64,000 nucleotides of DNA from Dehalococcoidia bacterium (GTDB lineage Bacteria > Chloroflexota > Dehalococcoidia > UBA2979), in NCBI GenBank assembly GCA_963692775.1, contig OY839116.1:3016161-3080160 (forward strand), read 5' to 3'. Under the pieces are notes generated by a model. The model searched no databases. It saw only the letters and a list, made by a program, of their open reading frames with translations, and was not told the DNA's origin. Positions 1-45,505 of this stretch are shown piece by piece (the stretch's first letter is position 1; every line of letters starts with the position of its first letter). Made by a program: the position numbers and the translations under genes.

Positions 1-923
1 TGGCGGTTCCCGCTGGTGTAGAGCCTGAGGACCAGCGGCAGAACGCCCACGGAGTTGAAGATGCGTGGTGTCGTCAACGTCCGCATCGTGATGTGTCGGA
101 GGTCCGAGAACTCCTGGTTCAGCAAGAAGTCGGCACTCTCTCCATATTGCTCCCTCAGTCGCCACGACGCCCACAGATAGTGGCGCCCATCGATGCGCCC
201 GTCCGGGATGAACCGCTCGTCCGGTTGCCTGTGATCGAACGCGCCGCTGACAACTCGCGCCGTTTCCGCGAAGTAGAACATCCCCAGCCACGACCACACG
301 CCTGCGTGCTGGCCGACAAGGCGAGTGATCGGCTCCAGGCGGGGCGCAAGGTACTCGGCGGCGTCGCGGCGTGTGCGAAAGGGGCGGCGCTCGACCTCGA
401 CATCGCCGGGGAACGGCTGCGCGTAGCGCTCGTCGTAGAGGAGTTCTCGCGGCGGCTCGCGGTCGCCGTCCGGTTGGGCGCGCAGTCGCTCCAGGAAGGC
501 GCGGGCGAACTCGACGCCGTCGGGCGTGAGGCGGCGCAAGCGCTGGCGCTCGACGGAGTGGCGCCGCCCCGGCGTCTCGTCCGTGAGCCGCTCGAGTTCG
601 CGCGCGGTGGCGAGCGCCTCCTCCGTGAGCGTCGCGGGGGCCTCCACAGGCGGCGCTGCCGCGGGAACGAGCGGCTCCACGCCCATCAACTGCGAGGTCA
701 ACGCGTCGATCGCCTGGTTGATCCGCGCCAGCATCGTGCCCCGCCGCACCTTGTAGCCCGGTGGGCGGGATGCCTCCACGAACGCATCCCACGCTGGCGA
801 TCCGGGCTCCGCGTAGTCGCGCAGGTTGATGCGGCGGGGCGCGTCATCGCGCCCGAGCGCGTCGCGGATCTCGCGCAACCGGGCGAGCGCCTCCGCCCTC
901 GTGTCGTTCGCGCGCTCGTTCAT
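1..923 (-). CDS. hypothetical protein, third gene of the GHKL-ATPase operon. The 5' end is complete and the 3' end runs off the window edge (>=307 aa).
   Basis: Own translation of the minus strand from ATG at 921-923 (MNERANDTRAEALARLREIRDALGRDD...) is open to position 1 with high GC3 codon usage. Its start overlaps the upstream stop as ATGA (920-923). It is not in the ORF track because it is open-ended. The plus-strand ORF 93..953 is its antisense artefact. Confidence 0.55.
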   Translation of the reverse strand, partial: MNERANDTRAEALARLREIRDALGRDDAPRRINLRDYAEPGSPAWDAFVEASRPPGYKVRRGTMLARINQAIDALTSQLMGVEPLVPAAAPPVEAPATLTEEALATARELERLTDETPGRRHSVERQRLRRLTPDGVEFARAFLERLRAQPDGDREPPRELLYDERYAQPFPGDVEVERRPFRTRRDAAEYLAPRLEPITRLVGQHAGVWSWLGMFYFAETARVVSGAFDHRQPDERFIPDGRIDGRHYLWASWRLREQYGESADFLLNQEFSDLRHITMRTLTTPRIFNSVGVLPLVLRLYTSGNR

Positions 924-1696
924 GCCCGCCGCCCCTGCACGGCCTGGTTATAGGACTCGGCGGCATCGACGGCGTCGTCGGCGAACGCCTCCACGACCTT
1001 GTCGATCCAGCGGCTCGCGGCGGCGACCTCGCTCGCATCCGCGTCGCGGCTGAGGCGCGGCGGCTCCGCCTCCCGCAGCCGCGCCCGCGCCTGCTCGAAC
1101 CAGCCGCCCCACGGTCCCTCGCCGTCGTCGGGGTCCGCCCGTTCAACGAGCACGATGTGGCCCAGGATGGTGCGCAGCACGTCCGGCATGACGAGCGATC
1201 GGAACGCCGCGTCGCCGCGCACGATTTCGCTGATGCCGTCCACCTTCGGGTTGATCAGCAACTCGGGCAGGTCCATCCCGTCGCCGAAGTCCACGCGCCA
1301 CACCTCGTCGCCGAGATCCTCGCTCTCGCGCACCGCCAGCAGCGAGCGGCGCGGGAGCACCGGGCGGATGTTCGGCGCGTGCGCCAGCAGCAGGCCCGAT
1401 CCGTCGCCGGCTACGACGATCACGCGGAACTGCGCCGATTCGGGCACGTCCGTCAGCCGCCGCTCCTCGTCAGGCGGGGGCTCCGGCACGCCGGTCGTGC
1501 CGTAGTCCCAGCGCTGGACGGCGTTGCCGCGCCATGCCTCGACGCGGATGCGGGCGTCGGGCGGGAGGTCGTACGCCGACAGGTCGAGGTCGAGGTCGAA
1601 GACGGGCGCCTCGTCGCCGTCGGCCGGGCGCAGCGCGACCTGTGCATGGTCGCGCCGGATGCTCCTCCGTCCGGTGCGATTGAGATGCCGCCTCAC
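920..1696 (-). CDS. hypothetical protein (258 aa), middle gene of the GHKL-ATPase operon
   Basis: Listed ORF with coding-like composition. There are 4-nt overlaps with both neighbours (1693-1696 and 920-923). I recognise no motif. Confidence 0.6.
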   Translation of the reverse strand: MRRHLNRTGRRSIRRDHAQVALRPADGDEAPVFDLDLDLSAYDLPPDARIRVEAWRGNAVQRWDYGTTGVPEPPPDEERRLTDVPESAQFRVIVVAGDGSGLLLAHAPNIRPVLPRRSLLAVRESEDLGDEVWRVDFGDGMDLPELLINPKVDGISEIVRGDAAFRSLVMPDVLRTILGHIVLVERADPDDGEGPWGGWFEQARARLREAEPPRLSRDADASEVAAASRWIDKVVEAFADDAVDAAESYNQAVQGRRA

Positions 1697-3678
1697 GATG
1701 CCTCGTCCTCGCTTCCGCCGTCATCAGCGGCGACGATGGGCCGCACGTCGACGACGACGTCGCGGTCGTCGAGGCCGGTCACGTCGAGGCGGAAGTCGCT
1801 GCCTTCGACCCGGAAGCGCAGCTCATTCCCGGCCGGGGGCTCGACGCGGGCTGAGCGTTCGCGTATCTCCACCCCGCCATCGCCGATCACGAAGTCGGGC
1901 ACGCCCTGACGCGCTCCCCGCTCGAAGAGGTTGAAGGCGTTGCCACGGACGACGTCGTAGGCGAAGCGGAGCGTCCAGTCCGTACCGGCGAGGGTGTTCC
2001 CGCGCGGCGCTCGCAGCGAGAATCCTCCGGCGCTGCGGCTGACGTCGAACGGGCTGGGCGCCGTTCGCGGCGGGGGGTCGCTGACGCGTGATCGCCCAGG
2101 GCCGACGCGCGTGCTTGGCGTACGTCCCTTGATGGCGGTCGCGTCTGCGGGGAACAGGTCGGCGAGCGCGTCGAACTGCTGCTCGTCGGGCCGCTCGGCG
2201 AGGCGCTGGAGGAGCAGCACCGCGGCGCGGCGTACCTCCTGCACGCGAGCGTAACCGCCGACCCACCGATCCTTCAGGCGCTGCTCGTGCGGATCCCAGA
2301 CGACGTGCGCCGGGCCCTCCGCATCGCGCAGGAGGTGACCCAACTCGGACTCGCCGTCCACCAGCACGAGCGCGCGCGCCTTGTAGCGTTCGACGTGATC
2401 CATGCGCGGGATGCTGAGGTGGCCACGGATGAAGTAGTCGTGGCCCTTGCTGAGGTTCTCGGCCCGTTCGAAGTAGAGCCGGAAGCTGCCGGGCGTGCGC
2501 ACTGCCGCCCCGCGCCGCTGCACGCCGATCTCCAGATTGAACGCCAGCCGTTCACCGTTCTCGTAGCGCTCGCGCAGATCCTCTAGGTCCAGGCTCGCGA
2601 GCGCGTCACTAGTGCGCCTGGGGACCGGGAGGCGGATGTGCTCGCCGTCGCCGCGTCCGATTGCCCACTGGGCGAGCCTGATGGCGCCTGCCAGCGACTC
2701 GGGCGTCTCTTCGTCGTGCGCGTCCTGGCTGTCCAGCTGGGGGATGTCGACCACCTCGCGGTTGATGGTCTCAGCGTTGATGTAGCGCCGTCGCTCGCCC
2801 GGCGCGCTGATCTCGATGCTGAGGTCACCGCGCACGATCGGCAGGAAGTACTGCGCGATGACGGCGCGGGCGATCGCCGCCGAAGTGATGTCCTCGTGCG
2901 GATAGGGCACGACGACGGAGAGGCCGGGCTCGTCGAGCCGCCCGAGTCCGAAGTCCTCTATCGCCGTCAGCACGAACTCGGTGTCGTCGTCGGAGTCGAG
3001 GGGAAGCGGCAGCCACTGGTCGTCGCCGTGGTCGTCCGCGACCGCGAACTGACCGTAGGGCGGGTGCTTCACGCCGTCCACGGTGTGCGTCCTGAGCACG
3101 GCCATCCCCATCACCAGCACGTTGTCCTCGCCAGCGCGGCGCGTCGCGCCGACGTAGGCGTTGATCATCGAAGCGTCGGGGAAGACCCACTTGCCGAGGC
3201 CCCACGAGCCGCCGGCGTCCTCGTTCTTGGGGGAGATGCCGATGCTGCGGAAGAAGCCCCAGAAATGGTTCCCGGCTTCCTTCTCCTCGTTGGCCCGGAT
3301 GTCGCCCGCCAGACCGGTGGTCCCGAAGTCCTCGATGGCAAGCCATGTCATCGGCCGTCGCAGGCAGGCCCGCGCGGCGGCGATTGCCTCCCGCTCTGCC
3401 GCGTCAGCGTCCCGGTCCGCCTGGATGTGCGGCTCGAGGCCCTCGAGGTAGCGCGTGGCGGCGCTGGCCGGGAGCGCGCCGTCGTCGCCGCTGAACGTGA
3501 AGCGGACCAGCACGGTCTCGCCGTCCCGCCGGGCGTCGAGCGAGTTCTGCAGCGCCTCGCGCACGAGCCGCTCGGGCAGGTCGGCGGCGGTCGTGAAGAA
3601 CTCGCCCTGCACCGGGTTCTGATTGATTTCCCAAGGCTGCATGCGCCCGAACCGCCAGTGCGGTCGTCTCGATGCCAT
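1693..3678 (-). CDS. MORC/HATPase_c_3-like GHKL (Bergerat-fold) ATPase, 661 aa
   Basis: N-box LVREALQNSLDA, G1 box AIEDFGTTGLAGD and G2 box GGSWGLGKWVF all lie in the N-terminal 180 aa. The C-terminal ~450 aa is unassigned. The RBS is GGGGG 5 nt upstream of the ATG. Confidence 0.7.
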   Translation of the reverse strand: MASRRPHWRFGRMQPWEINQNPVQGEFFTTAADLPERLVREALQNSLDARRDGETVLVRFTFSGDDGALPASAATRYLEGLEPHIQADRDADAAEREAIAAARACLRRPMTWLAIEDFGTTGLAGDIRANEEKEAGNHFWGFFRSIGISPKNEDAGGSWGLGKWVFPDASMINAYVGATRRAGEDNVLVMGMAVLRTHTVDGVKHPPYGQFAVADDHGDDQWLPLPLDSDDDTEFVLTAIEDFGLGRLDEPGLSVVVPYPHEDITSAAIARAVIAQYFLPIVRGDLSIEISAPGERRRYINAETINREVVDIPQLDSQDAHDEETPESLAGAIRLAQWAIGRGDGEHIRLPVPRRTSDALASLDLEDLRERYENGERLAFNLEIGVQRRGAAVRTPGSFRLYFERAENLSKGHDYFIRGHLSIPRMDHVERYKARALVLVDGESELGHLLRDAEGPAHVVWDPHEQRLKDRWVGGYARVQEVRRAAVLLLQRLAERPDEQQFDALADLFPADATAIKGRTPSTRVGPGRSRVSDPPPRTAPSPFDVSRSAGGFSLRAPRGNTLAGTDWTLRFAYDVVRGNAFNLFERGARQGVPDFVIGDGGVEIRERSARVEPPAGNELRFRVEGSDFRLDVTGLDDRDVVVDVRPIVAADDGGSEDEAS

Positions 3679-3730
3679 CGCGCCCCCCAGCGGGGCAGTG
3701 TAGCGCTTCCTTTAGCCGCGTACGCCGCGC

Positions 3731-5128
3731 CTACGGGTGCGTCATCTCCTCCGGGCGCACCCACTCGTCGAACTCGGCGTCCGTGACGTAGCCGAGGGAC
3801 AGCGCGGCCTCGCGCAGCGTCGAGCCCGCGACGTGGGCGTGGTGGGCCACCTCGGCGGCGCGGTCGTAGCCGATGTGCGGGCTGAGCGCCGTCACCAGCA
3901 TCAGCGACGACTCCATCAACTCGCGGATGCGCGCGTGGTTCGGCTCGATGCCGGCGACGCAGTTGTCGGTGAAGGAGACGGCGGCGTCGCCCAGCAGGCG
4001 GATCGATTGCAGCGTGTTGTAGACGATCACCGGCTTGAAGACGTTGAGCTCGAAGTGGCCCGTCGCGCCGCCGACGTTGACCGCCACGTCGTTGCCGATC
4101 ACCTGCGCGCAGACCATCGTCAGCGCCTCGGACTGCGTCGGGTTCACCTTGCCCGGCATGATCGAGGAGCCCGGCTCGTTGGCGGGCAGCATCAGCTCGG
4201 CGACGCCGGCGCGCGGCCCGGAGCCGAGCAGCCGCACGTCGTTCGCGATCTTCATCAGCGAGGCGGCGACGGTCTTGAGCTGGCCCGACAGCTCGACCTG
4301 CGCGTCGTGCGCGGCGAGCGACTCGAACTTGTTGGGCGCGGTCACGAAGGGCAGCCCCGTCATGCGCGCGATCTCCGCGGCGACGCGCTCGCCGTACTCG
4401 GGGTGCGCGTTGAGGCCGGTGCCGACCGCAGTGCCGCCGAGGGCGAGCTCGCAGACGCGCGGCAGCGCGCTCTCGACGCGCAGGATCGCGTTCTCGACCT
4501 GCTTGACGTAACCGGAGAACTCCTGGCCGAGCGTCAGCGGCGTCGCGTCCATCAAGTGCGTGCGGCCGATCTTCACGATGTCCTCGAAGGCGGCCTGCTT
4601 CGCGGCGAGCGCCTCGTGCAGATGCTTGAGGCCGGGCGCGAGGCGGTGCGTGACCTCCTCGGCGGTCGCGATCGACATCGCGCCGGGGAAGACGTCGTTC
4701 GAGGACTGCGACATGTTGACGTGGTCGTTGGGGTGCACCGGGTCCTTGGAGCCGCGCACGCCGCCGAGCAGCTCGATCGCGCGGTTGGAGATCACCTCGT
4801 TGGCGTTCATGTTGGACTGGGTGCCGGAGCCGGTCTGCCAGACGACGAGCGGGAAGTGGTCGTCGAGGTCGCCGTCGATCACCTCCTGCGCGGCGGAGCG
4901 GATCGCCTCGGCGAGCCCGCCGTCGAGCCTGCCGAGGCTCTCGTTCGCGCTCGCCGAGGCGTGCTTGACGATGCCGAGAGCGCGGATGATCGAGCGCGGC
5001 ATGCGCTCGTCCCCGATCTTGAAGTTCTCCAGCGAGCGCTGCGTCTGCGCCCCCCAGTACCTGTCATCGGCCACCTCGATGGCGCCCATGCTGTCGGTCT
5101 CGATGCGGGTGGGTGTGGTGGTTGTCAT
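3731..5128 (-). CDS. fumC: class II fumarate hydratase
   Basis: [17 protein letters not shown] signature. Start refined to [19 protein letters not shown] (GAGGAG RBS); the listed ORF extends further 5'. Confidence 0.9.
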
Positions 5129-5237
5129 CGTGTGCTCCTCGGTGCCGGGAGCAGGGTAGCGGGAGTGGGGGTTGTGGGCAGCAGCGCGCGTCGTTCGGCA
5201 GGCGGACATGAACGTGCGTTCGGGAGCCTCGGCGGGT

Positions 5238-6137
5238 ATGGTGAGGGCCATGACGCCGCGCGAAGCGTTTCTGCGAGAACTGGCCGAGCGGGCGGGCGAG
5301 CCGAGGAGGCTTGGCCGCAGCCGCTCGCTGTTCGAGATCGGGGATGGGCAGGCGTTCGTCTACATCCGCTACTCGCGCGTCCACGGGCCGGGCAACACGT
5401 TCTTCGGCCTCCGGGACCAGGACGTGCGCGAGCTCGAGGGGCGGACGGCGTTCATCGCGCTGCTGTGGGACGGTCAGGCGGAGCCGCTGCTGCTCCCGTT
5501 CGCTGAGTTCGCCCCGCTGTTCGAGGAGTCCGAACCCGCCGCAGACGGCCAGTTCAAGGCGCAGGTCTACCTGCGCGAGGACCAGCCCGCCGAGCTCTAC
5601 GTCACGCGCGCCGGACGCCACAACGTCGAAACCTACTTCGGTTGGGAGCTGCTGCTGAGCGCCCTCGCCGACGTGCGCGAGGAGACGCCGAAGCTCGAGC
5701 ACTCGCAGGTGCAGACGCTGCTCGGGGCGATCGGCGATATGCAAGGACTGGACGTCTGGATACCGCCGAACGACCGATCGAAGATGGACTGGACGCTGGC
5801 TCCCAGGTTCCAGTTCCGCACGGCGCTCCCGCCGGGCCTCGACGCCGTGATGCGCGAGATCGACGTGGTCTGGCTGGCGCGCGGCGGCAGCACGCCGGTC
5901 AGCCTTTACGAGGTCGAGCACACGACGGCGATCTACTCGGGGCTGCTGCGCTTCAACGACATGCACCTGACCGTCAACCGGCCGCCGAAGTTCACGATCG
6001 TCGCGCCGGAGGATCGGCGGGGCAAGTTCGTGCGGGAGGTGCGCCGCCCGACGTTCCGGGCGAGCGGCCTCAACGACATCTGCCGCTTCATGACCTACGG
6101 CGAGGTGTACCGCTCGGCGCCGGCGCTCGGCGCGTAG
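5238..6137 (+). CDS. hypothetical protein (~300 aa); start uncertain (TTG 5172, ATG 5238 or ATG 5250)
   Basis: Long ORF with good codon usage, divergent from fumC. The segment [10 protein letters not shown]...SLYEVEHT is weakly reminiscent of a PD-(D/E)xK-type core, but this is not secure. Confidence 0.5.
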
Positions 6138-6153
6138 CGAGAGGGAGGACGGC

Positions 6154-6393
6154 ATGACCAGCGAGGCGAACGGGACGAACGGCGCGGGCGAGCGCCACTA
6201 CCTGCTCTACGTCTGGGCCGGCGTCGAGCCGGAGCTGCACGGCCCCTACCCCACGGACGACGAGCGCCTCGAGGCCGCCCGCGCCCTCGCCGCCGACGGC
6301 GGCTCCGACGAGCACGGCATCTTCTGGCTCGACGCCCCGGGGGCTGTGGAGGTGGGGACGTTCGGGGCGGCGGAGGTTGGAGGCCAAGGGTGA
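6154..6393 (+). CDS. small acidic hypothetical protein (79 aa)
   Basis: Strong RBS GAGGGAGGA 5 nt upstream of the ATG, 16 nt after the upstream stop. D/E-rich. Confidence 0.5.
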   Translation: MTSEANGTNGAGERHYLLYVWAGVEPELHGPYPTDDERLEAARALAADGGSDEHGIFWLDAPGAVEVGTFGAAEVGGQG

Positions 6394-6395
6394 CA

Positions 6396-6932
6396 TTACC
6401 GCCTGCCGTCGACTTCTTTGTCGCCCGGACCGCCCGAGTCCTTCTGTGACGCGTACAGAGCCCTGATTAGACCGCGCCGAGCGACGAGGCGGACTAGAGC
6501 CAGCATGTTGAACAGGGTCCACACAAACAGGAACGTGGAGAGCCCGATGCCGATGCGCATTGTTAGCTCGTCGTTCTGCGGTGTGAGAATCAGGAACATT
6601 AGACTGGCGGAGGAGGTCAGTACGGCGACTACAGCAGTGAAGGAGAATGGGAAGAAGTCTTCGATCACACCCCTACCGATGCTGTTGGACACCCTGAGCA
6701 GCTCGTCGTTCATGAGCGTAACGATGAGCGATAGGCCCGCCAGTACCACACCGAGCAAGCCAACCGACACCGTAGCCTCTGTGCGGAGTATCAAAGTGTA
6801 GCGTTCCTGAAGATTGCTATCTGTGACCAAGACTGCTGGTGCTATGCCGAGCACGAGGGACAACACGAAGTACCAGTGGAGGAAGATGTGCCTCCAATGG
6901 GCGAGCAGCAGTGACCAGAACCCGGGAACCAT
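6396..6932 (-). CDS. 4-TM membrane protein (178 aa) in a low-GC islet
   Basis: Four hydrophobic helices can be read from the translation. Local GC is ~55% against ~70% for the genome. It sits 2 nt downstream of the partner gene. Confidence 0.6.
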   Translation of the reverse strand: MVPGFWSLLLAHWRHIFLHWYFVLSLVLGIAPAVLVTDSNLQERYTLILRTEATVSVGLLGVVLAGLSLIVTLMNDELLRVSNSIGRGVIEDFFPFSFTAVVAVLTSSASLMFLILTPQNDELTMRIGIGLSTFLFVWTLFNMLALVRLVARRGLIRALYASQKDSGGPGDKEVDGRR

Positions 6933-6934
6933 GT

Positions 6935-7771
6935 TCAGAGCAGCGATCTGAGCGATCTCAGCAGGCGGCGGAGGTACGTCTCCTCCGTCTCGTTCTCGAC
7001 TGTCTCGATGTCGGTGCTGGCGACATTCCGGCCTGAGTCGAAGAATCTCCGGTTCCGATCTACTACACCGGTGGCCCGCACGACGCCGAAAGTCTCTCGT
7101 GTGTAGTCAACGAAGTCCTGTAGGCCAGTGCCAGTAATCTGGAGACCGGGACCGTCCTGTGGGGGCTTGGCCTCGAGGTTGACCTGCGCTGCGTTCGAAT
7201 CTTCCAGGAGCCGCCGGACGATGGCGTCTCCATGTTCGTCCCAGTCCGGGTTTGGTTGTCGGACCGAAACGAAGAATCGGGTCACCCGGTCTGTGCGGGT
7301 GAGCCAATTGCTGAACTCTTCCATGTCAGCGACGAATTCGGCGTCGAATGCGACTTCAGGATTCGGTGCTTGGCGCAGGATCATTCTCAGGGCGGTAGCG
7401 AAAGCGGTTCGCCTGACATCTCTCCGCTCCTCGAAGATCAGGTAGCGGGTATCTAGGTCGAGCACGAGGTACGAGAACTGGCCATGTCCCCTGCTGCCGG
7501 GAATGGTGATAAAGTCCTCGGCCTCTTCGTCGTACCGCACAGCGGGCTCATCCGTGCGGATGCTCTCGAAGCCGAGCTTCCCGAAGAGGACGGGCTCGTC
7601 GCCGAGTCGCTGAGGGCGTGCGAGACGCCAATTGCGCCCGTAGCGCGCCACGACCTGCTGCGGATCAAGCGCCTCCATAATGTCTGGCTCGAACGGCCGG
7701 TCACGCTGGGTAAGCAGGGGCAGGTCAGCGCTTCGGTTGATCCGCATCAGCCAGAGACGGCGTCGGGCCAT
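6935..7771 (-). CDS. hypothetical cytoplasmic protein (278 aa), upstream partner of the 4-TM protein
   Basis: RBS GGGAAGGGAG before the ATG. Low GC. No recognisable motif. Confidence 0.6.
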   Translation of the reverse strand: MARRRLWLMRINRSADLPLLTQRDRPFEPDIMEALDPQQVVARYGRNWRLARPQRLGDEPVLFGKLGFESIRTDEPAVRYDEEAEDFITIPGSRGHGQFSYLVLDLDTRYLIFEERRDVRRTAFATALRMILRQAPNPEVAFDAEFVADMEEFSNWLTRTDRVTRFFVSVRQPNPDWDEHGDAIVRRLLEDSNAAQVNLEAKPPQDGPGLQITGTGLQDFVDYTRETFGVVRATGVVDRNRRFFDSGRNVASTDIETVENETEETYLRRLLRSLRSLL

Positions 7772-29956: not shown

Positions 29957-30245
29957 CGCGGCGCCCGCAAGCGCTCCTCCTTCAGATCCTCGACGCTGTC
30001 GAGGTCCGGGTGCTGTTCCTGCAAGTAGGCGGGGATGACGAGGCCGATTGCCAGTTGCGGCTGAGGCTCTCGCCGCCAGAGACGACCTCGCCGAGTGCCT
30101 GGGTCTCCTCCCAGGCCTCGATCTGGTTGGGCAGCCAGATCTCCAGCGTAATGTGGCTGTCGCCACGCCGCAGCCCCTGCAGCAGCGGCAGCGCGTGCCC
30201 GAACACCAGCCCCCGAGCCTCCGCAGCCGCGAGGCGACGGCTCAA
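29956..30245 (-). pseudogene. frameshifted internal fragment (~85 codons) of a ProX-like substrate-binding protein gene; duplicate of 33043..33287
   Basis: Two overlapping listed ORFs (29953..30420 and 29982..30245) in different frames together reproduce VFGH.LPLLQGLRRGDSHIT.EIWLPNQIEAW...YLQEQHPDLDSVEDLKEER of the intact gene at 32459..33523. DNA identity is about 90%. Confidence 0.75.
29962..30211. repeat. direct repeat copy A (~250 bp) flanking the LRR lipoprotein insertion
   Basis: Aligns by eye with 33043..33287 with scattered mismatches (about 90% identity). Confidence 0.8.
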
Positions 30246-32200
30246 TCAGGCGGTCCGCACGCCCTGAACGCCGCCTCGCTGAACGGGTCCACCAGGTGCA
30301 AGTTGTTTTCGATGAGACACGAATCCCGTGCGCCCAAGTACTTGTTCTGCGCGCTCCTGATGACCTGGCCGGGGCCGTTCTCGAGGAACAGGATCCCCGC
30401 TTCCAGCATGCGGCTGGCAATCTCGATGCCCTCTCCGGCGAAGAGCGCCCAGCCGATTACGTTGCTGGCGCCTCCCGCAACCTTCACGCCCCTGATGACC
30501 CATTTGGCTGCGTGGCGATATCTGCCGTTGATTGCCAGATGCTGGACCGCGCGGATCTCTATCTTTTCGAGACCTTCCTTCTCGGCGTACTTTCTAATGC
30601 TATCGCTGCGCAACTGCGGATAGTTCGAGAATTGATCGTACGCCAGGACGGACAGGTCCACGAACCCGCGGAGCATGTCGGCCTGGAATTCATTCCAGTA
30701 GTTCCGGGTGTCTGCGGGTTCTTCCTCGGACCACGGGTTGTTCCTGAGGTCCACCGCGATCGTGGCTTCCGCGTTTTCGGCAAACCCATTGTCCAGCAAG
30801 AACTTCGCGCCACTGGTCAACTCGTTGCCGGACAGGTTCAGGACGGCCAGATTCGGGAGGTCGTTCAGCGCCTCCGGAATCGACCCGCTCAGGCCGTGCC
30901 GGCAGATCAGCGTGCAGCCGCGATCACGCTTGTTCCAGGACAGATCCAGCTCGACCAGGTTTTGCAGGTTCTCCCAGTCGATGCCGCGGTCGTGGCCCGG
31001 GTTCTGCTCCTCGATGTCCCCCCGGAACATGTTGCCGGAGAGGTTCAGGTGGGTAAGCGCGGTGAGCTGGTCCAGTTCGGGTGGCAGGGCCCCGCCGAGG
31101 TTGTTGCCGGAGAGGTCCAGGTGGGTGAGGGCGGTCAGGTCGCCCAGCATGTCCAGCCTGTTGTGCCCTCCGAAGAACCCGCCGCTGTCGTTGTCCAGGC
31201 TGACGCCCGGCAGCTCGAGCCCGATGACGCGTCCGCTCTCTTCGTCGACGGTCACCCCATACCAGTCCGCGACATCCCGGTCCTCACTCCACCTCACTCT
31301 ATAGCGGTTGAACTCATCGTCCAGATTCCACCACTCCCACGAATCGCCGTGGGTAGCGTCGTAGAAGCGAATGAGTGCGTCCCGGTCGCTTTCCGCCGAA
31401 CCCGGCGGCCCGGGGGGCTCCGGGTCCGGCGTGGATGTCGGCGTGGATGTCGGCGTGGACGTCGGCGTGGATGTCGGCGTGGATGTCGGCGTGGACGTCG
31501 GCGTGGACGTCGGCGTGGACGTCGGCGTGGACGTCGGCGTGGATGTTGGGGTGGCCGTCGGCGTGGATGTTGGGGTGGCCGTCGGCGTGGATGTTGGCGT
31601 GGATGTTGGCGTGGCCGTTGGCGTGGCCGTTGGCGTGGCCGTGGCCGTTGGCGTTGCTACCGCCGTGAGCGTGGGCGGGCAGGCTTGGTCCCACATCTCA
31701 TCCACCCGCTCCTCCGCAGCCTCGACGGCCGAAGCAGCCCGCAGGAGGGGATCCGAAGCCTCCAGGTTCGCCAGGGAGCGGAGGGCGACACGCGCGAACT
31801 CCCGTACCGCTTCCGCCGAGGCGACAACGGCTCTGTGCAGGGCCTCCAGCCCGTCGGGGACCCGCAGGCCCCGGAGCCGGGTGATGAGATCGCCGAGACG
31901 CGAGACGTGTGCGCTGTGGGGTCCCTCATCGATGATTTCGTCCAGAATGTCTTCTATCTCGTCCGCGAACGGCTCCAGGCTTTCCTCGTAGGCTGCGCAT
32001 GTGGCGGCCGTGGGCCCTCCACGCGCGGCCGCCGCGTCTCCGGTTTGGCCGGCCGTCTGCCCGCGATCCCGCGATTCCCACGGGTTCTCGCCGGATCCTG
32101 AGCCGCCATCGCAGGCGGCCGCCAGCGTGAGAAGCAGGCAGGCCTGAATCAGCGCCAACACGAACGCGTCGCGGAACAGCCGCCTGGGGAACGGAATCAT
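30242..32200 (-). CDS. lipoprotein with PT-repeat linker, leucine-rich repeats and a low-GC C-terminal domain of unknown function
   Basis: LAAAC lipobox; about 90 aa of (T/S/A)PT repeats; LRRs of the form LTALTHLDLSGNNLGGALPPELDQLTALTHLNLSGN. The last ~170 aa lie in ~55% GC DNA. Confidence 0.75.
   Translation of the reverse strand: MIPFPRRLFRDAFVLALIQACLLLTLAAACDGGSGSGENPWESRDRGQTAGQTGDAAAARGGPTAATCAAYEESLEPFADEIEDILDEIIDEGPHSAHVSRLGDLITRLRGLRVPDGLEALHRAVVASAEAVREFARVALRSLANLEASDPLLRAASAVEAAEERVDEMWDQACPPTLTAVATPTATATPTATPTATPTSTPTSTPTATPTSTPTATPTSTPTSTPTSTPTSTPTSTPTSTPTSTPTSTPTSTPTSTPDPEPPGPPGSAESDRDALIRFYDATHGDSWEWWNLDDEFNRYRVRWSEDRDVADWYGVTVDEESGRVIGLELPGVSLDNDSGGFFGGHNRLDMLGDLTALTHLDLSGNNLGGALPPELDQLTALTHLNLSGNMFRGDIEEQNPGHDRGIDWENLQNLVELDLSWNKRDRGCTLICRHGLSGSIPEALNDLPNLAVLNLSGNELTSGAKFLLDNGFAENAEATIAVDLRNNPWSEEEPADTRNYWNEFQADMLRGFVDLSVLAYDQFSNYPQLRSDSIRKYAEKEGLEKIEIRAVQHLAINGRYRHAAKWVIRGVKVAGGASNVIGWALFAGEGIEIASRMLEAGILFLENGPGQVIRSAQNKYLGARDSCLIENNLHLVDPFSEAAFRACGPPD
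31395..31680. repeat. tandem 12-bp repeat (~24 units) encoding the PT linker
   Basis: gtcggcgtggatgtcggcgtggac... units. The antisense listed ORF 31314..31694 shows HADV/HADI repeats. Confidence 0.85.
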
Positions 32201-43222: not shown

Positions 43223-45505
43223 ATGGTACAGGCTCAGTGGCCGCTTCCCGGCACGGATCGCGCTACCCGTGAACTCCTTGAGGCGCTCTTGGAGGCAGAG
43301 ACAGAGGCTGACGTGCATGCATGTCTCGATCAGGCGGGCATGCTTGATGACTCGTACTGGCAGCCGTATGGAGGCGTGCAGAACAACAGCGGCACCTTCT
43401 TCAACCAACAGGCGAGCCCGCGAGGCGCGCTTGTCGAGAAGATTGTCAATAGCATCGACGCTGTCCTGATGGCCAAGGCTTTCGAGCACGCTGATTTGCT
43501 GAGTGGTTCCCCGCCAGATTCGATGTTTGGGGCTGCGGACCGCTATTTCGACATCCGCGACGGCCGCCTCTCCGAGGTTCCGGCGGGAGAACGGAGGGCG
43601 ATCGCTCGGCAAGCGGTCCAAGTCGTGCTCTCCGGCAACCGGAGCCCGGGTCGCCCGACCATCACGATCGCCGATCAGGGTGAGGGCCAGAACCCCGAGT
43701 CGTTCCCGGGCACCTTCCTGTCGCTGTCAGCCACGAACAAGATGAAGATCCCGTTCGTCCAAGGGAAGTTCAACATGGGTTCTGCGGGAGCAGTGCCGTT
43801 CTGTGGAGTGCAGCAGAACTACCAGTTGATCCTCTCTCGCAGGCACCCTGCGATACCGGACTCGAACGGACGTTGGGGATTCACGGTCGTGCGCCGTCGT
43901 CCCCCTAAGCCGGATGAGCGAGCTTCTCAGTTCGAGTATCTCGCTCCAGATGGTGCGGTGCTCAGTATCGGCGCAGACACCGTGCCGCTATGGAAGAACG
44001 GTGACGGAAGCACTTCGGAAGTAGGACACGGCAGCCTCGTACGACTGTACGAGTACGATATCCAAGAACGGACTGCCGCGAACTTTGACTTTTCCCGGAT
44101 GCTGAATCGCCGACTGTACCGGCTACCACTACCGATCCAGGTCATCGAGACCCGAGGCTTTAGGCGGGCCAACAACGAGGAAGTCGTCCCCGGCTTGGCT
44201 ACGCGACTCGATGAGGATACGTCCAATGATGTGGAACACGGCTTTCCCGTGTCCGACCGCATAAGGGTTGAGGGTGTCGGGTGGGTGCGCGTCTCACTGA
44301 TCCCGTTCCGTGAAGACGTGAACATCAGCCACTGGGTGACCGCATCTGAGAGCGTGATATTCACGGTGAATGGTCAAGCGCACGCATTCGAGGCACGGGA
44401 CTTCTTGCGGCGCGACACGCGAAGCGGGGCAAACTACCGTTATCTGGCGCAGAGCTTGCTAGTTGAGGTTGACTGCTCCGAACTAGGCAGCATCGAGCAG
44501 TTGTTCATGGGCTCTCGCGACCGAATGCGGGACGGCGAACAACGCACTGCGCTTCTGCGTGCACTTGCGGGGCACCTTCGTCGGCATAAGGGGCTCCGCG
44601 AGCTGAATCACAAGCGACGCGAGGCAGCGATACAGCGCTCAGTCAAGAGCAACGTCAAGACCAGTGAGATGTTTGAGAAAATGATCGCTGCGTCGCCCAC
44701 GATAGCGGCTTTGCTCAGCGGCGGAGCTATCCCAGCGCCCGTCGCCCCAACGCCGCCACCGGTTGTCGTTCCATTTGAGGGGCAGCGGTTCCCGACTTTC
44801 CTCAAGTGGGCCAAGGGCGGTCCTGTACGCGAGAAGCGCTGTCACCTTGGGTCGTACTGCCTGCTCGAGCTTGAGACGGATGCTTCCAACGACTTCCTCT
44901 CGCGATCGATCGAGCCCGGGATTCTTGATGTCGCCCCATCAGGCTGGTCAGTGAGCGAGAAGCTATGGGACGGGAGCCTTCAGATTCGGTTGGAACCACC
45001 GGTTGGCATCCAGTCGGGGCAGAAAATCCCGCTTAGGGTCACGCTCATGTCTGATGCTCCACCGGAAGTTCCAGATGTGCTCGAAGTCGAAGGTCGACTT
45101 GTGGTCGATCCACCTGTCGAGAGTCCGCCGCCGCCGCCGCCTCCTCCTCCCCGGCCGAAGGTTGCTCCACCAGAGATTCTGGAGGTGAGGAGGGATGCTT
45201 GGTCAGCTCACGACTTTGACGAGCATTCGATTGCTCGCGTGGACAAGGCGGATGGTAAGACCATCGTGTTCGTCAACATGGATAGTCAGGGGTTGGTCGC
45301 CTACGTACGCACCGAGCGGCAGCGAAGAAGCGAGCTTGAGGAGATGTACAAGCTTGCGGTGGCTCCCACCGCCATCTCACTGGAGCGGGCTGTTGCGGAC
45401 GAGGAAATCACGAGCGCGCAGGCGGACAAGGCTCTAGCCGCCGTAGGCGCTGTATTGCTCCCCGCCGTCGACTTCGCGGCGAAGGTCGCGCAAGAGGCGG
45501 AGTAG
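43223..45505 (+). CDS. MORC/HATPase_c_3-like GHKL ATPase, 760 aa, with long unassigned C-terminal region and a poly-Pro tract
   Basis: N-box ALVEKIVNSIDAV, G1 ITIADQGEGQN, G2 QGKFNMGSAGAV. Starts 2 nt after the upstream stop. GC is about 58%. Confidence 0.7.
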   Translation: MVQAQWPLPGTDRATRELLEALLEAETEADVHACLDQAGMLDDSYWQPYGGVQNNSGTFFNQQASPRGALVEKIVNSIDAVLMAKAFEHADLLSGSPPDSMFGAADRYFDIRDGRLSEVPAGERRAIARQAVQVVLSGNRSPGRPTITIADQGEGQNPESFPGTFLSLSATNKMKIPFVQGKFNMGSAGAVPFCGVQQNYQLILSRRHPAIPDSNGRWGFTVVRRRPPKPDERASQFEYLAPDGAVLSIGADTVPLWKNGDGSTSEVGHGSLVRLYEYDIQERTAANFDFSRMLNRRLYRLPLPIQVIETRGFRRANNEEVVPGLATRLDEDTSNDVEHGFPVSDRIRVEGVGWVRVSLIPFREDVNISHWVTASESVIFTVNGQAHAFEARDFLRRDTRSGANYRYLAQSLLVEVDCSELGSIEQLFMGSRDRMRDGEQRTALLRALAGHLRRHKGLRELNHKRREAAIQRSVKSNVKTSEMFEKMIAASPTIAALLSGGAIPAPVAPTPPPVVVPFEGQRFPTFLKWAKGGPVREKRCHLGSYCLLELETDASNDFLSRSIEPGILDVAPSGWSVSEKLWDGSLQIRLEPPVGIQSGQKIPLRVTLMSDAPPEVPDVLEVEGRLVVDPPVESPPPPPPPPPRPKVAPPEILEVRRDAWSAHDFDEHSIARVDKADGKTIVFVNMDSQGLVAYVRTERQRRSELEEMYKLAVAPTAISLERAVADEEITSAQADKALAAVGAVLLPAVDFAAKVAQEAE

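Follow-up and report, generated by a model that had tools for sequence, protein, structure and literature searches.

The window studied here is a stretch of 64,000 nucleotides (nt) of a Dehalococcoidia genome (contig OY839116.1, positions 3,016,161 to 3,080,160 of the forward strand), at whose left edge three minus-strand genes, named A, B and C, follow the fumarase gene fumC. Gene A encodes a predicted GHKL ATPase. An earlier note on this DNA had proposed that the triad resembles a conflict system, but that it could equally be an old, domesticated module. We wanted to know which of these two it is. Strict co-conservation of the three genes was observed, and profile comparisons place the triad as a deeply divergent, previously unrecognized sister clade of the candidate system PDC-M33. 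Systems of this kind have already been catalogued as candidates (PDC-M33, paraMORC2-like); what is new is the divergent window-type clade. The reading we prefer, with a probability of about 0.62, is that the triad is a self-contained, horizontally mobile conflict module, probably directed against phages or plasmids.

Gene structure and co-conservation of the triad

The locus is organized as follows (p1, p2 and p3 are the products of genes A, B and C; lengths in amino acids, aa).

1–923, minus strand: gene C (p3), 307 of 360 codons inside the window, the final 53 codons left of the window edge
920–923, minus strand: ATGA overlap, gene C start over gene B stop, reading ...gggcATGAacg...
920–1696, minus strand: gene B (p2), 258 aa, GTG start, open reading frame (ORF) call
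1693–1696, minus strand: GTGA overlap, gene B start over gene A stop, reading ...catcGTGAggc...
1693–3678, minus strand: gene A (p1), 661 aa, ATG start, predicted paraMORC-type GHKL ATPase
3679–3730, minus strand: spacer of 52 nt between the fumC stop and the gene A ATG, with a GGGGGG Shine-Dalgarno-like run 5 nt before the ATG

The ORF calls agree exactly with the coordinates first given for the three genes (661, 258 and at least 307 aa), and their chaining by 4-nt GTGA and ATGA overlaps can be read directly in the sequence. The third gene, which runs off the window, was obtained in full: its product is 360 aa long (P0121) and is 100% identical to the window part. P0001, P0188 and P0121 are the source genome's own triad proteins, encoded on one 3.22-Mb contig. 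As the DNA is ~70% GC, many chance long ORFs are listed on both strands. The GC content at third codon positions (GC3) is 0.88–0.92 in the called frames versus 0.44–0.80 in the overlapping alternative ORFs, and each triad protein has hundreds of conserved homologues; because of this coding-type GC3 and these homologues, we consider A, B and C to be real genes. The database entry P0001 is 649 aa long and starts at M13, which makes it 12 residues shorter at the N-terminus (window 3643–3678). The 661-aa start (ATG at 3678) is preferred, because the upstream PxWRFxRM is kept in most homologues.

Pfam identifies the gene before the triad as a true class II fumarase (Lyase_1, E 8e-111, and FumaraseC_C); it ends at 3731, so that the 52-bp distance to the ATG at 3678 holds. 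A scan of the minus strand around the spacer between fumC and gene A detected neither a sigma-70-like promoter nor a terminator, and read-through from fumC is therefore possible. The GC content, described before as genome-typical, is so for the bulk of the triad; its GC3 lies in the lower quartile of the genes in the window (median 0.94).

Conservation of the partners together with the ATPase had been set beforehand as the test of the conflict proposal. We scanned one genome per species (185,579 species' genomes) with motif patterns, which yielded 64 loci, all in metagenome-assembled genomes. They are distributed over Chloroflexota (Dehalococcoidia, Tepidiformaceae, Anaerolineales), Gemmatimonadota (Longimicrobiales, Candidatus (Ca.) Palauibacter), Acidobacteriota, Actinomycetota (Ca. 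Hopanoidivorans), Gammaproteobacteria and Thermodesulfobacteriota. According to tblastn, B and C are present at 61 of the 64 loci, and the order A-B-C is found at about 59, mostly with 4-nt overlaps; junctions of 4 nt or similarly tight ones are found in most related loci. Gene C is located upstream of A in two loci (L035 and L045), and in two others (L048 and L052) the contig ends within the locus. Two further loci are decayed copies: in L057 (10001–11023), A is truncated to about 340 aa with neither B nor C after it, and in L064 (10339–11514), A and B are partial and C is located further downstream. A metagenome scan with an alignment of A spanning both the window-type and the PDC-M33-type clade yielded 80 further loci of the wider superfamily. 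The size pattern recurs in nearly all of those that extend far enough: about 620–660 aa for A, 250–290 aa for B and 240–260 aa for C. Clustering of all flanking ORFs in the window clade did not reveal a fourth conserved gene. Hence, the three genes are strictly co-conserved, as the test demanded, and gene B is an obligate partner of gene A.

Two p3 paralogues are encoded on a single contig in two cases (P0158/P0159 on a contig of 2,490,836 bp, and P0134/P0137 on one of 371,402 bp), a sign that certain genomes may contain the triad twice. In addition, many of the genomes bearing the 64 loci (L001–L064) have names that hint at symbionts of marine sponges (Ca. Palauibacter irciniicola and Ca. Hopanoidivorans cymbastelae, along with several bins), and judging from these names, sponge microbiomes may be where the cassette circulates.

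Relationship to PDC-M33

The PADLOC check that the earlier note had advised gave a divided answer, positive in part for p1 and negative for p2 and p3. The sole library match of the triad was that of PADLOC model PDC-M33A to p1, limited to residues 34–164 (hmmscan, E 2e-16), and no match of p2 or p3 to PDC-M33B or PDC-M33C was obtained at E≤1. The PDC systems are 145 candidates nominated by their embedding in BREX, DISARM or type I restriction-modification (R-M) loci, of which PDC-M33 is a three-family cassette, FAM_02818>>FAM_02838>>FAM_01881, with 98 RefSeq occurrences (Payne et al., 10.1101/2024.01.29.577857). The literature that we searched contained no mention of PDC-M33 or DUF6339.

Distant tblastn matches of p1 led to plasmid loci of PDC-M33. 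Plasmid pAAG24-152 of Arthrobacter agilis contains overlapping genes of 628, 295 and 252 aa that match PDC-M33A (E 3.5e-82, full-length), B (6e-30) and C (1e-31), respectively. The third of these corresponds to Pfam DUF6339, and the system is located between dcm-vsr-REase genes (REase, restriction endonuclease) and a gene for a Shedu nuclease. Other PDC-M33 copies are carried by conjugative plasmids of Lactococcus lactis, next to AbiGII; by plasmids of Priestia, next to MutH/Sau3AI and dcm; by plasmids of Paenarthrobacter and Deinococcus, with R-M genes as neighbors; and also by haloarchaeal plasmids. Iterative jackhmmer searches left the B and C proteins in two unconnected clades: a window-type clade consisting of the window family, a Rhizobium copy and metagenome loci L076–L081, and a PDC-M33-type clade made up of the copies on plasmids plus some 50 metagenome loci.

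We then compared the two clades by deep profile-profile alignment. The A families align with 99.9% probability over 576 columns (hhalign, E 1.3e-37). For B against B, the E value was 5.8e-4, with the alignment collinear from residue 1, and 0.018 with independent alignments; for C against C, the values were 0.021 and 0.005, respectively. All six non-cognate pairings gave E values of 0.13–0.64. Hidden Markov models (HMMs) of one clade searched against the proteins of the other gave the following scores.

PDC-M33-type B model against window-type proteins: cognate B 11.6 bits, non-cognate C no match
PDC-M33-type C model against window-type proteins: cognate C 14.5 bits, non-cognate B 0.8 bits
Window-type B model against PDC-M33-type proteins: cognate B 11.1 bits, non-cognate C 4.6 bits
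Window-type C model against PDC-M33-type proteins: cognate C 9.4 bits, non-cognate B -0.7 bits

The strongest motifs of C and DUF6339 align in the same order (...ADxxxxW.WLG... with ...A.D.RLW..LA..., and RHYLWxSWRLYE with LARLWWxxxLTYD). Single-sequence hhalign comparisons of p2 and p3 with the Arthrobacter B and C proteins were negative, and Pfam DUF6339 (PF19866) did not match P0121, P0186 or ten other window-type C proteins at E≤1. A DUF6339 label that a precomputed table attaches to the window-type C of L159 (11829–12548) was not reproduced by hmmscan of the identical sequence, and we give it little weight. At the level of profiles, A is certainly homologous to PDC-M33A over its full length. 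B and C are probably homologous to PDC-M33B and PDC-M33C, which we hold with good but not full confidence, and the core of p3 is probably a divergent DUF6339-like domain. PADLOC would not call the window system, since its B and C proteins are too diverged for the standard models.

The two clades share the arrangement of three co-directional, overlapping genes in the order A-B-C (A about 630–660 aa, B about 255–290 aa and C about 240–260 aa), an ExxxH-W motif in A (see below), and a sporadic, mobile distribution beside R-M and other defense genes. They differ in that many C proteins of the window clade contain an extra N-terminal module, and in where they reside: the window clade mostly on chromosomes of uncultured members of the Chloroflexota, Gemmatimonadota and Acidobacteriota, PDC-M33 on plasmids that belong to Firmicutes, Actinobacteria, Deinococcus and haloarchaea. 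Another difference is a gene of ~75 aa located directly before A in 39 of 83 PDC-M33-type loci, which the window clade lacks save for one window-type locus (L076). This small gene, which falls outside the three-gene PADLOC definition of PDC-M33, encodes the motif ...ERF..LAE.R....I..L.L(I/L)GNL(A/S)NR.NY(D/E)Y... and is sometimes more conserved than A, with up to 89% identity in some pairs. Examples are listed below.

L067, 5666–5893: ~75-aa gene
L071, 4641–4871: ~75-aa gene
L070, 4744–4974: ~75-aa gene
L072, 4812–5000: ~75-aa gene
L076, 4603–4872: ~75-aa gene, window-type locus

Predicted architecture of the proteins and comparison with other GHKL systems

The regions recognized in p1 and p3 are the following.

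3589–3678, minus strand: p1 residues 1–30, N-terminal segment conserved as PxWRFxRMxPxEINQxPVQGEFF, modelled as disordered in the monomer
2944–3588, minus strand: p1 residues ~31–245, predicted Bergerat-fold ATP-binding domain with N-box E41/N45/D48, G1 D117xGxxGL and G2 G157SWGLGK
2188–2943, minus strand: p1 residues ~246–497, predicted transducer (S5-like) and middle region, internal boundary approximate
2305–2319, minus strand: ExxxH motif E454-G-P-A-H458 within HLLRDAEGPAHxxW, invariant in the window clade
2062–2187, minus strand: p1 residues 498–539, variable, disordered linker rich in Pro, Gly and Arg, pLDDT (model confidence score) <50, poorly conserved columns
1729–2061, minus strand: p1 residues ~540–650, predicted C-terminal beta-sandwich domain
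669–923, minus strand: p3 residues 1–85, accessory helical module with LREIRDxLG..APRRVNLRDYA..G.PAW.AFV, only in part of the family
1–548, minus strand: p3 residues 126–307 of 126–360, conserved all-alpha core with motifs WSWLGMFYF, RHYLWxSWRL, RIFNSxG and ERTYDVYGM

The Bergerat-fold N-terminus that had been read from the sequence of p1 was borne out. All three motifs are present (EALQNSLDA at 41–49, EDFGTTGL at 116–123 and GGSWGLGKWVF at 156–166); residues E41, N45, D48, D117, G119, G122, G157, G160 and G162 are invariant in an alignment of 21 homologues and across both clades; and the Bergerat alpha/beta sandwich is present in the predicted structure. The structural matches of p1 are given with their score and alignment length.

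MORC3: 15.2, 269
SMCHD1: 15.1, 290
TopoVI-B: 13.0, 300
MutL: 13.0, 250
MORC2: 12.4, 287
Hsp90s: about 12, 299–315

MORC3 and SMCHD1 are thus the closest, and the length of the structural alignments shows that the ATP-binding domain is followed by a transducer. On the basis of sequence and model, p1 appears to be an ATPase-competent protein of the GHKL plus transducer type. HLLRDAEGPAHxxW is the most conserved motif of the family, and the E, H and W of this ExxxH-W site are invariant also in distant PDC-M33A proteins. In the N-terminal segment, M13, N19, P22, G25, E26, F27 and F28 are invariant in the 21 homologues, and pLDDT is <50 at residues 15–30 of the model. With other GHKL ATPases serving as a guide, this segment may be a dimerization strap or a partner-contact segment.

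Searches with p1, profile included, gave no Pfam, NCBIfam or PDB sequence match, and its 21 homologues had no Pfam match at E≤1; specifically, MutL_C, DNA_mis_repair and HSP90 domains were absent from p1 and these homologues. The partners had been described as carrying no recognizable motif, and the same picture emerged from the databases: neither p2 nor p3 matches a Pfam, NCBIfam, PADLOC or PDB entry, and no known nuclease or toxin motif set was detected in them. Members of the p2 family are stand-alone proteins of a constant size of about 255 aa, and 73 diverse members lack a Pfam domain. A profile search of 1.84 billion representatives at 50% identity retrieved 1,834 clusters of this family at E≤1e-3 and 1,413 at E≤1e-10. 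A Toprim-like reading of the 'GDGSG' loop of p2 was dropped for lack of a supporting motif set, as was a tyrosine-recombinase-like reading of the 'RHY' of p3.

The p3 protein is rich in Arg and Trp. Its universally conserved core of ~240 aa starts at about residue 126–128 according to tblastn and alignment, and the AlphaFold2 model is confident and all-alpha (pLDDT 89), without a fold match in PDB or BFVD. Six family alignments searched against PDB by sequence and profile gave no credible match; hits of family profiles to uracil-DNA-glycosylase (E 0.013) and ESCRT-III (E 0.2) were judged to be due to chance. The first 85 residues, with helices at 2–24, 43–52 and 61–79 in the model, are missing from minimal members of 240 aa and are C-terminal in some relatives (P0180, P0181 and P0187), and for these reasons they appear, by sequence, to be a mobile accessory domain.

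How does the triad compare with GHKL systems described before? The hallmark of paraMORC2 is a strongly conserved ExxxH located within the C-terminal part of S5 or beyond it, and the paraMORC families were defined by their R-M neighborhoods (Iyer, Abhiman & Aravind 2008, PMC2292703). The architecture of GHKL plus S5/transducer with a conserved ExxxH C-terminal to S5 (E454-GPA-H458) is shared by p1, as is a sporadic, laterally mobile, R-M-associated distribution, and, in line with the published account of paraMORC2, relatives of the PDC-M33 type occur commonly in Gram-positives. The partners stressed in that study are helicases, methylases and endonucleases and not a B/C pair. As the likeness is to the published description and not to paraMORC2 sequences, we take the identity of p1 with paraMORC2 as a lead. 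From MORC3, MORC2 and SMCHD1, p1 differs by an identity of about 10–12%, by the lack of a Pfam HATPase_c_3 match and of CW, coiled-coil and hinge domains, by a C-terminal half made up of the ExxxH region, the disordered linker and the beta-sandwich, and by having two dedicated partner genes. Sequence membership of the MORC family proper was not found for p1 or its 21 homologues (no Pfam match at E≤1).

GHKL defense proteins are known from Shedu type I-D, where the N-terminal GHKL domain of VcSduA (GHKL plus DUF4263) is presumed to gate the effector (PMC12137116). Shedu type I-D, the MutL-like MzaB and paraMORC3 with its RecB nuclease resemble p1 in their N-terminal GHKL ATPase with presumed effector gating. 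The difference is that p1 has no fusion to DUF4263, to a PD-(D/E)xK nuclease or to another effector domain. PADLOC models of these three kinds of system matched none of p1, p2 and p3, and a Pfam Shedu match was also absent. We rejected p1 as a housekeeping paralogue of MutL or HtpG: it has no MutL C-terminal or Hsp90 domains, its C-terminal half consists of the ExxxH region and the beta-sandwich, and its spread is sporadic and horizontal.

Mobility, gene neighborhood and possible function

Protein identities within the window clade conflict with taxonomy, which implies that the triad moves horizontally. The A proteins of a Palauibacter copy (Gemmatimonadota) and a gammaproteobacterial copy are 70% identical, and window p1 is 54% identical to a Thermoanaerobaculia copy versus 45–48% to several other Dehalococcoidia. 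A copy in a cultured organism was found on plasmid pRlX5 of Rhizobium leguminosarum TP16 (L073, 4773–8335; E values of 1.5e-50 for A, 2e-22 for B and 9e-20 for C). In addition, metagenome contig L079 is collinear with the window (mdh 88%, the gene beyond mdh 86% and fumC 90% identical at the nt level). Its triad, 72% identical to that of the window at the nt level (71%, 80.5% and 58% aa identity for A, B and C), is located between mdh and fumC, whereas the window triad is located after fumC. From this comparison it follows that the cassette behaves as an insertion or deletion in a conserved backbone, occupying differing sites in two close relatives. A triad fixed beside fumC was therefore rejected, as fumC is nearby only in L079 and L080, with the triad on its other side. 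A phage gene set was likewise rejected, with a single relative found in 2.9 million viral contigs.

In the window, the gap between mdh and fumC (5172–7771) contains a 2.5-kb insert where L079 has its triad, and this pair of observations makes the gap look like an integration hot spot. The insert contains three ORFs.

5172–6137, plus strand: 321-aa ORF whose C-terminus matches PADLOC REase_II (E 9e-9), 1.5 kb from the triad
6396–6932, minus strand: low-GC ORF, probably membrane, regional GC 0.56, no family match
6935–7771, minus strand: low-GC ORF, GC3 0.735, no family match

The neighborhoods of other window-type copies vary. In L156 (1–7922, Thermoanaerobaculia), the genes HsdM-AbiEi-AbiEii-HsdS-Fic-HsdR, with SLFN_AlbA_2 in HsdR, are located directly upstream of the triad, and in its sister L157 an rve transposase of an insertion sequence (IS) element is present between the R-M locus and the triad. 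According to precomputed Pfam labels, one copy is located between an AAA_15/PIN pair and a GmrSD gene, another adjoins N6_N4 methylase and GIY-YIG genes, and two have housekeeping neighbors only. A type I HsdR gene is present within 10 kb of the triad in 8 loci of three phyla, and the other flanks contain varied metabolic genes.

Between the two possibilities raised at the outset, we therefore favor a conflict system over an old domesticated module on account of the scattered phyla, the identities that conflict with taxonomy, the differing insertion sites, the R-M/AbiE/Fic, GmrSD and AAA_15 neighbors, and the plasmid-borne sister PDC-M33 in defense islands. From this evidence we infer a defense function; DNA would be the substrate, and A, B and C would form a complex. 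Several observations weigh against this. PDC-M33 is itself one of the 145 candidates, so that the defense role is a predicted one for both clades. No nuclease, toxin or membrane effector domain is recognizable in A, B or C by Pfam, NCBIfam, PADLOC or PDB searches. The homology of B and C to PDC-M33B and C is statistically weak, with no jackhmmer bridge and no PADLOC or Pfam match. Finally, several window-type copies, that of the window included, lie amid ordinary metabolic genes, and the bulk GC of the window triad is typical, with a GC3 that is just mildly low.

How might such a conflict module work? If p1 behaves like MORC, MutL and TopoVI-B, its N-terminal domains would dimerize into a clamp upon binding ATP, and the transducer with its family-specific ExxxH site would relay the state of the clamp to bound partners. 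The overlap between the stop codon of one gene and the start codon of the next points to joint synthesis of B and C with A, and in our working model B and C would form a complex with A. The composition of C (rich in Arg and Trp, helical) and its modularity lead us to propose that C, with its swappable accessory module, is most likely the nucleic-acid-binding or effector subunit, and that B may be an adaptor. Because no effector is recognizable, three readings stay: an autonomous system with an effector of new fold, an R-M accessory, and entrapment or silencing without a nuclease.

The R-M accessory role, which Iyer, Abhiman and Aravind proposed for paraMORCs (PMC2292703), would have the GHKL clamp loop or translocate DNA between the sites recognized and those cut by an R-M enzyme from another locus, with B and C as adaptors and the nuclease acting in trans. 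It would account for the missing effector domain and for the R-M neighborhoods that define the paraMORC families (PMC2292703), that led to the nomination of the PDC candidates (type I R-M, BREX or DISARM; 10.1101/2024.01.29.577857), and that recur in PDC-M33 loci, which almost always abut dcm, vsr or REase genes; type I R-M genes beside 8 window-type loci and the REase_II-like ORF 1.5 kb from the window triad also agree with it. But R-M genes are missing within 10 kb of most window-type loci, the three genes travel as a unit without a fixed R-M partner, and R-M adjacency would be seen for any resident of a defense island, so that we consider this role unlikely, if the foremost of the alternatives. 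Slightly less likely still is a nuclease-free module in which a MORC/SMCHD1-like clamp loaded by B and C entraps, compacts and represses foreign or particular DNA, as in eukaryotic MORC silencing. MORC3 and SMCHD1 as closest structural matches, the lack of a nuclease motif in all three proteins, and the Arg/Trp-rich, helical nature of C, consistent with nucleic-acid binding, speak for it; yet any DNA-binding domain in them would be putative, and C could equally be a nuclease of new fold, with conserved D205, H248, E330 and D334 as a putative metal site.

Improbable by comparison is a domesticated housekeeping module, that is, a MutL- or HtpG-like paralogue with two cofactors for DNA repair or protein folding that is co-transcribed with fumC. 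The spacing of only 52 nt without a detectable terminator or promoter, the genome-typical bulk GC and the several copies among metabolic genes fit this idea, which is contradicted by the adjacency to fumC being confined to L079 and L080, on the other side, by the sporadic presence (64 loci in 185,579 species' genomes), by cross-phylum identities at odds with taxonomy, by decayed copies (L057 and L064) and genomes with two copies, by plasmid-borne relatives in defense islands, and by the missing MutL_C, DNA_mis_repair and HSP90 domains. We give marginally less credit, and hence the least of all, to the idea that the triad serves a mobile element selfishly, for maintenance or exclusion (addiction, partition or entry-exclusion), and not host immunity: the cassette is mobile with variable sites, relatives are on conjugative plasmids and an IS element is located beside one copy (L157), but according to the flanking-ORF analysis the triad is not accompanied by an integrase, relaxase or replication gene, chromosomal copies are directly flanked by housekeeping genes, and only 1 of the 2.9 million viral contigs holds a relative.

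If the conflict module that we favor is an immune system, it is one missed by PADLOC and likely by DefenseFinder, since A is weakly touched by PADLOC models and B and C are invisible to them. Much may be overlooked in this way, above all in marine symbionts that are uncultured, because the B family alone comprises ~1,800 clusters at 50% identity. The analysis also brings together paraMORC2-type GHKL ATPases, DUF6339 of Pfam and PDC-M33 of PADLOC, separate until now, in a single putative A-B-C superfamily of bacteria and haloarchaea. Subunit C, with a confident model and an unmatched fold, is a target for structural biology, and entry points for experiments are the window-type copy on pRlX5 of Rhizobium leguminosarum TP16 and the PDC-M33-type plasmid copies of Arthrobacter, Priestia and Lactococcus. 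As MORC and SMCHD1 are the closest solved structures, the mechanism could inform on the prokaryotic roots of MORC-type chromatin ATPases. A bolder view, which is speculative and in our opinion rather unlikely to hold in its entirety, is that the triad and PDC-M33 form a widespread class of GHKL-driven immunity, in which C, as the effector or the subunit that handles DNA, would have a fold without solved counterpart. The MORC/SMCHD1-like clamp of this class would need no classical nuclease and might, for instance, entrap or silence invading DNA in an ATP-dependent manner, as a prokaryotic equivalent of MORC silencing; the window clade would be a variant exchanged horizontally between co-resident symbionts of at least five phyla, apparently associated with sponges.

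Two other genes in the window stand out. A leucine-rich-repeat protein of 652 aa with a GC3 of 0.82 is encoded at 30242–32200; leucine-rich-repeat proteins are of the eukaryote-like kind reported in sponge symbionts. An ORF of 760 aa without a Pfam domain is located at 43223–45505, and its GC3 of 0.69 is the lowest in the window; it is probably a further horizontally acquired gene.

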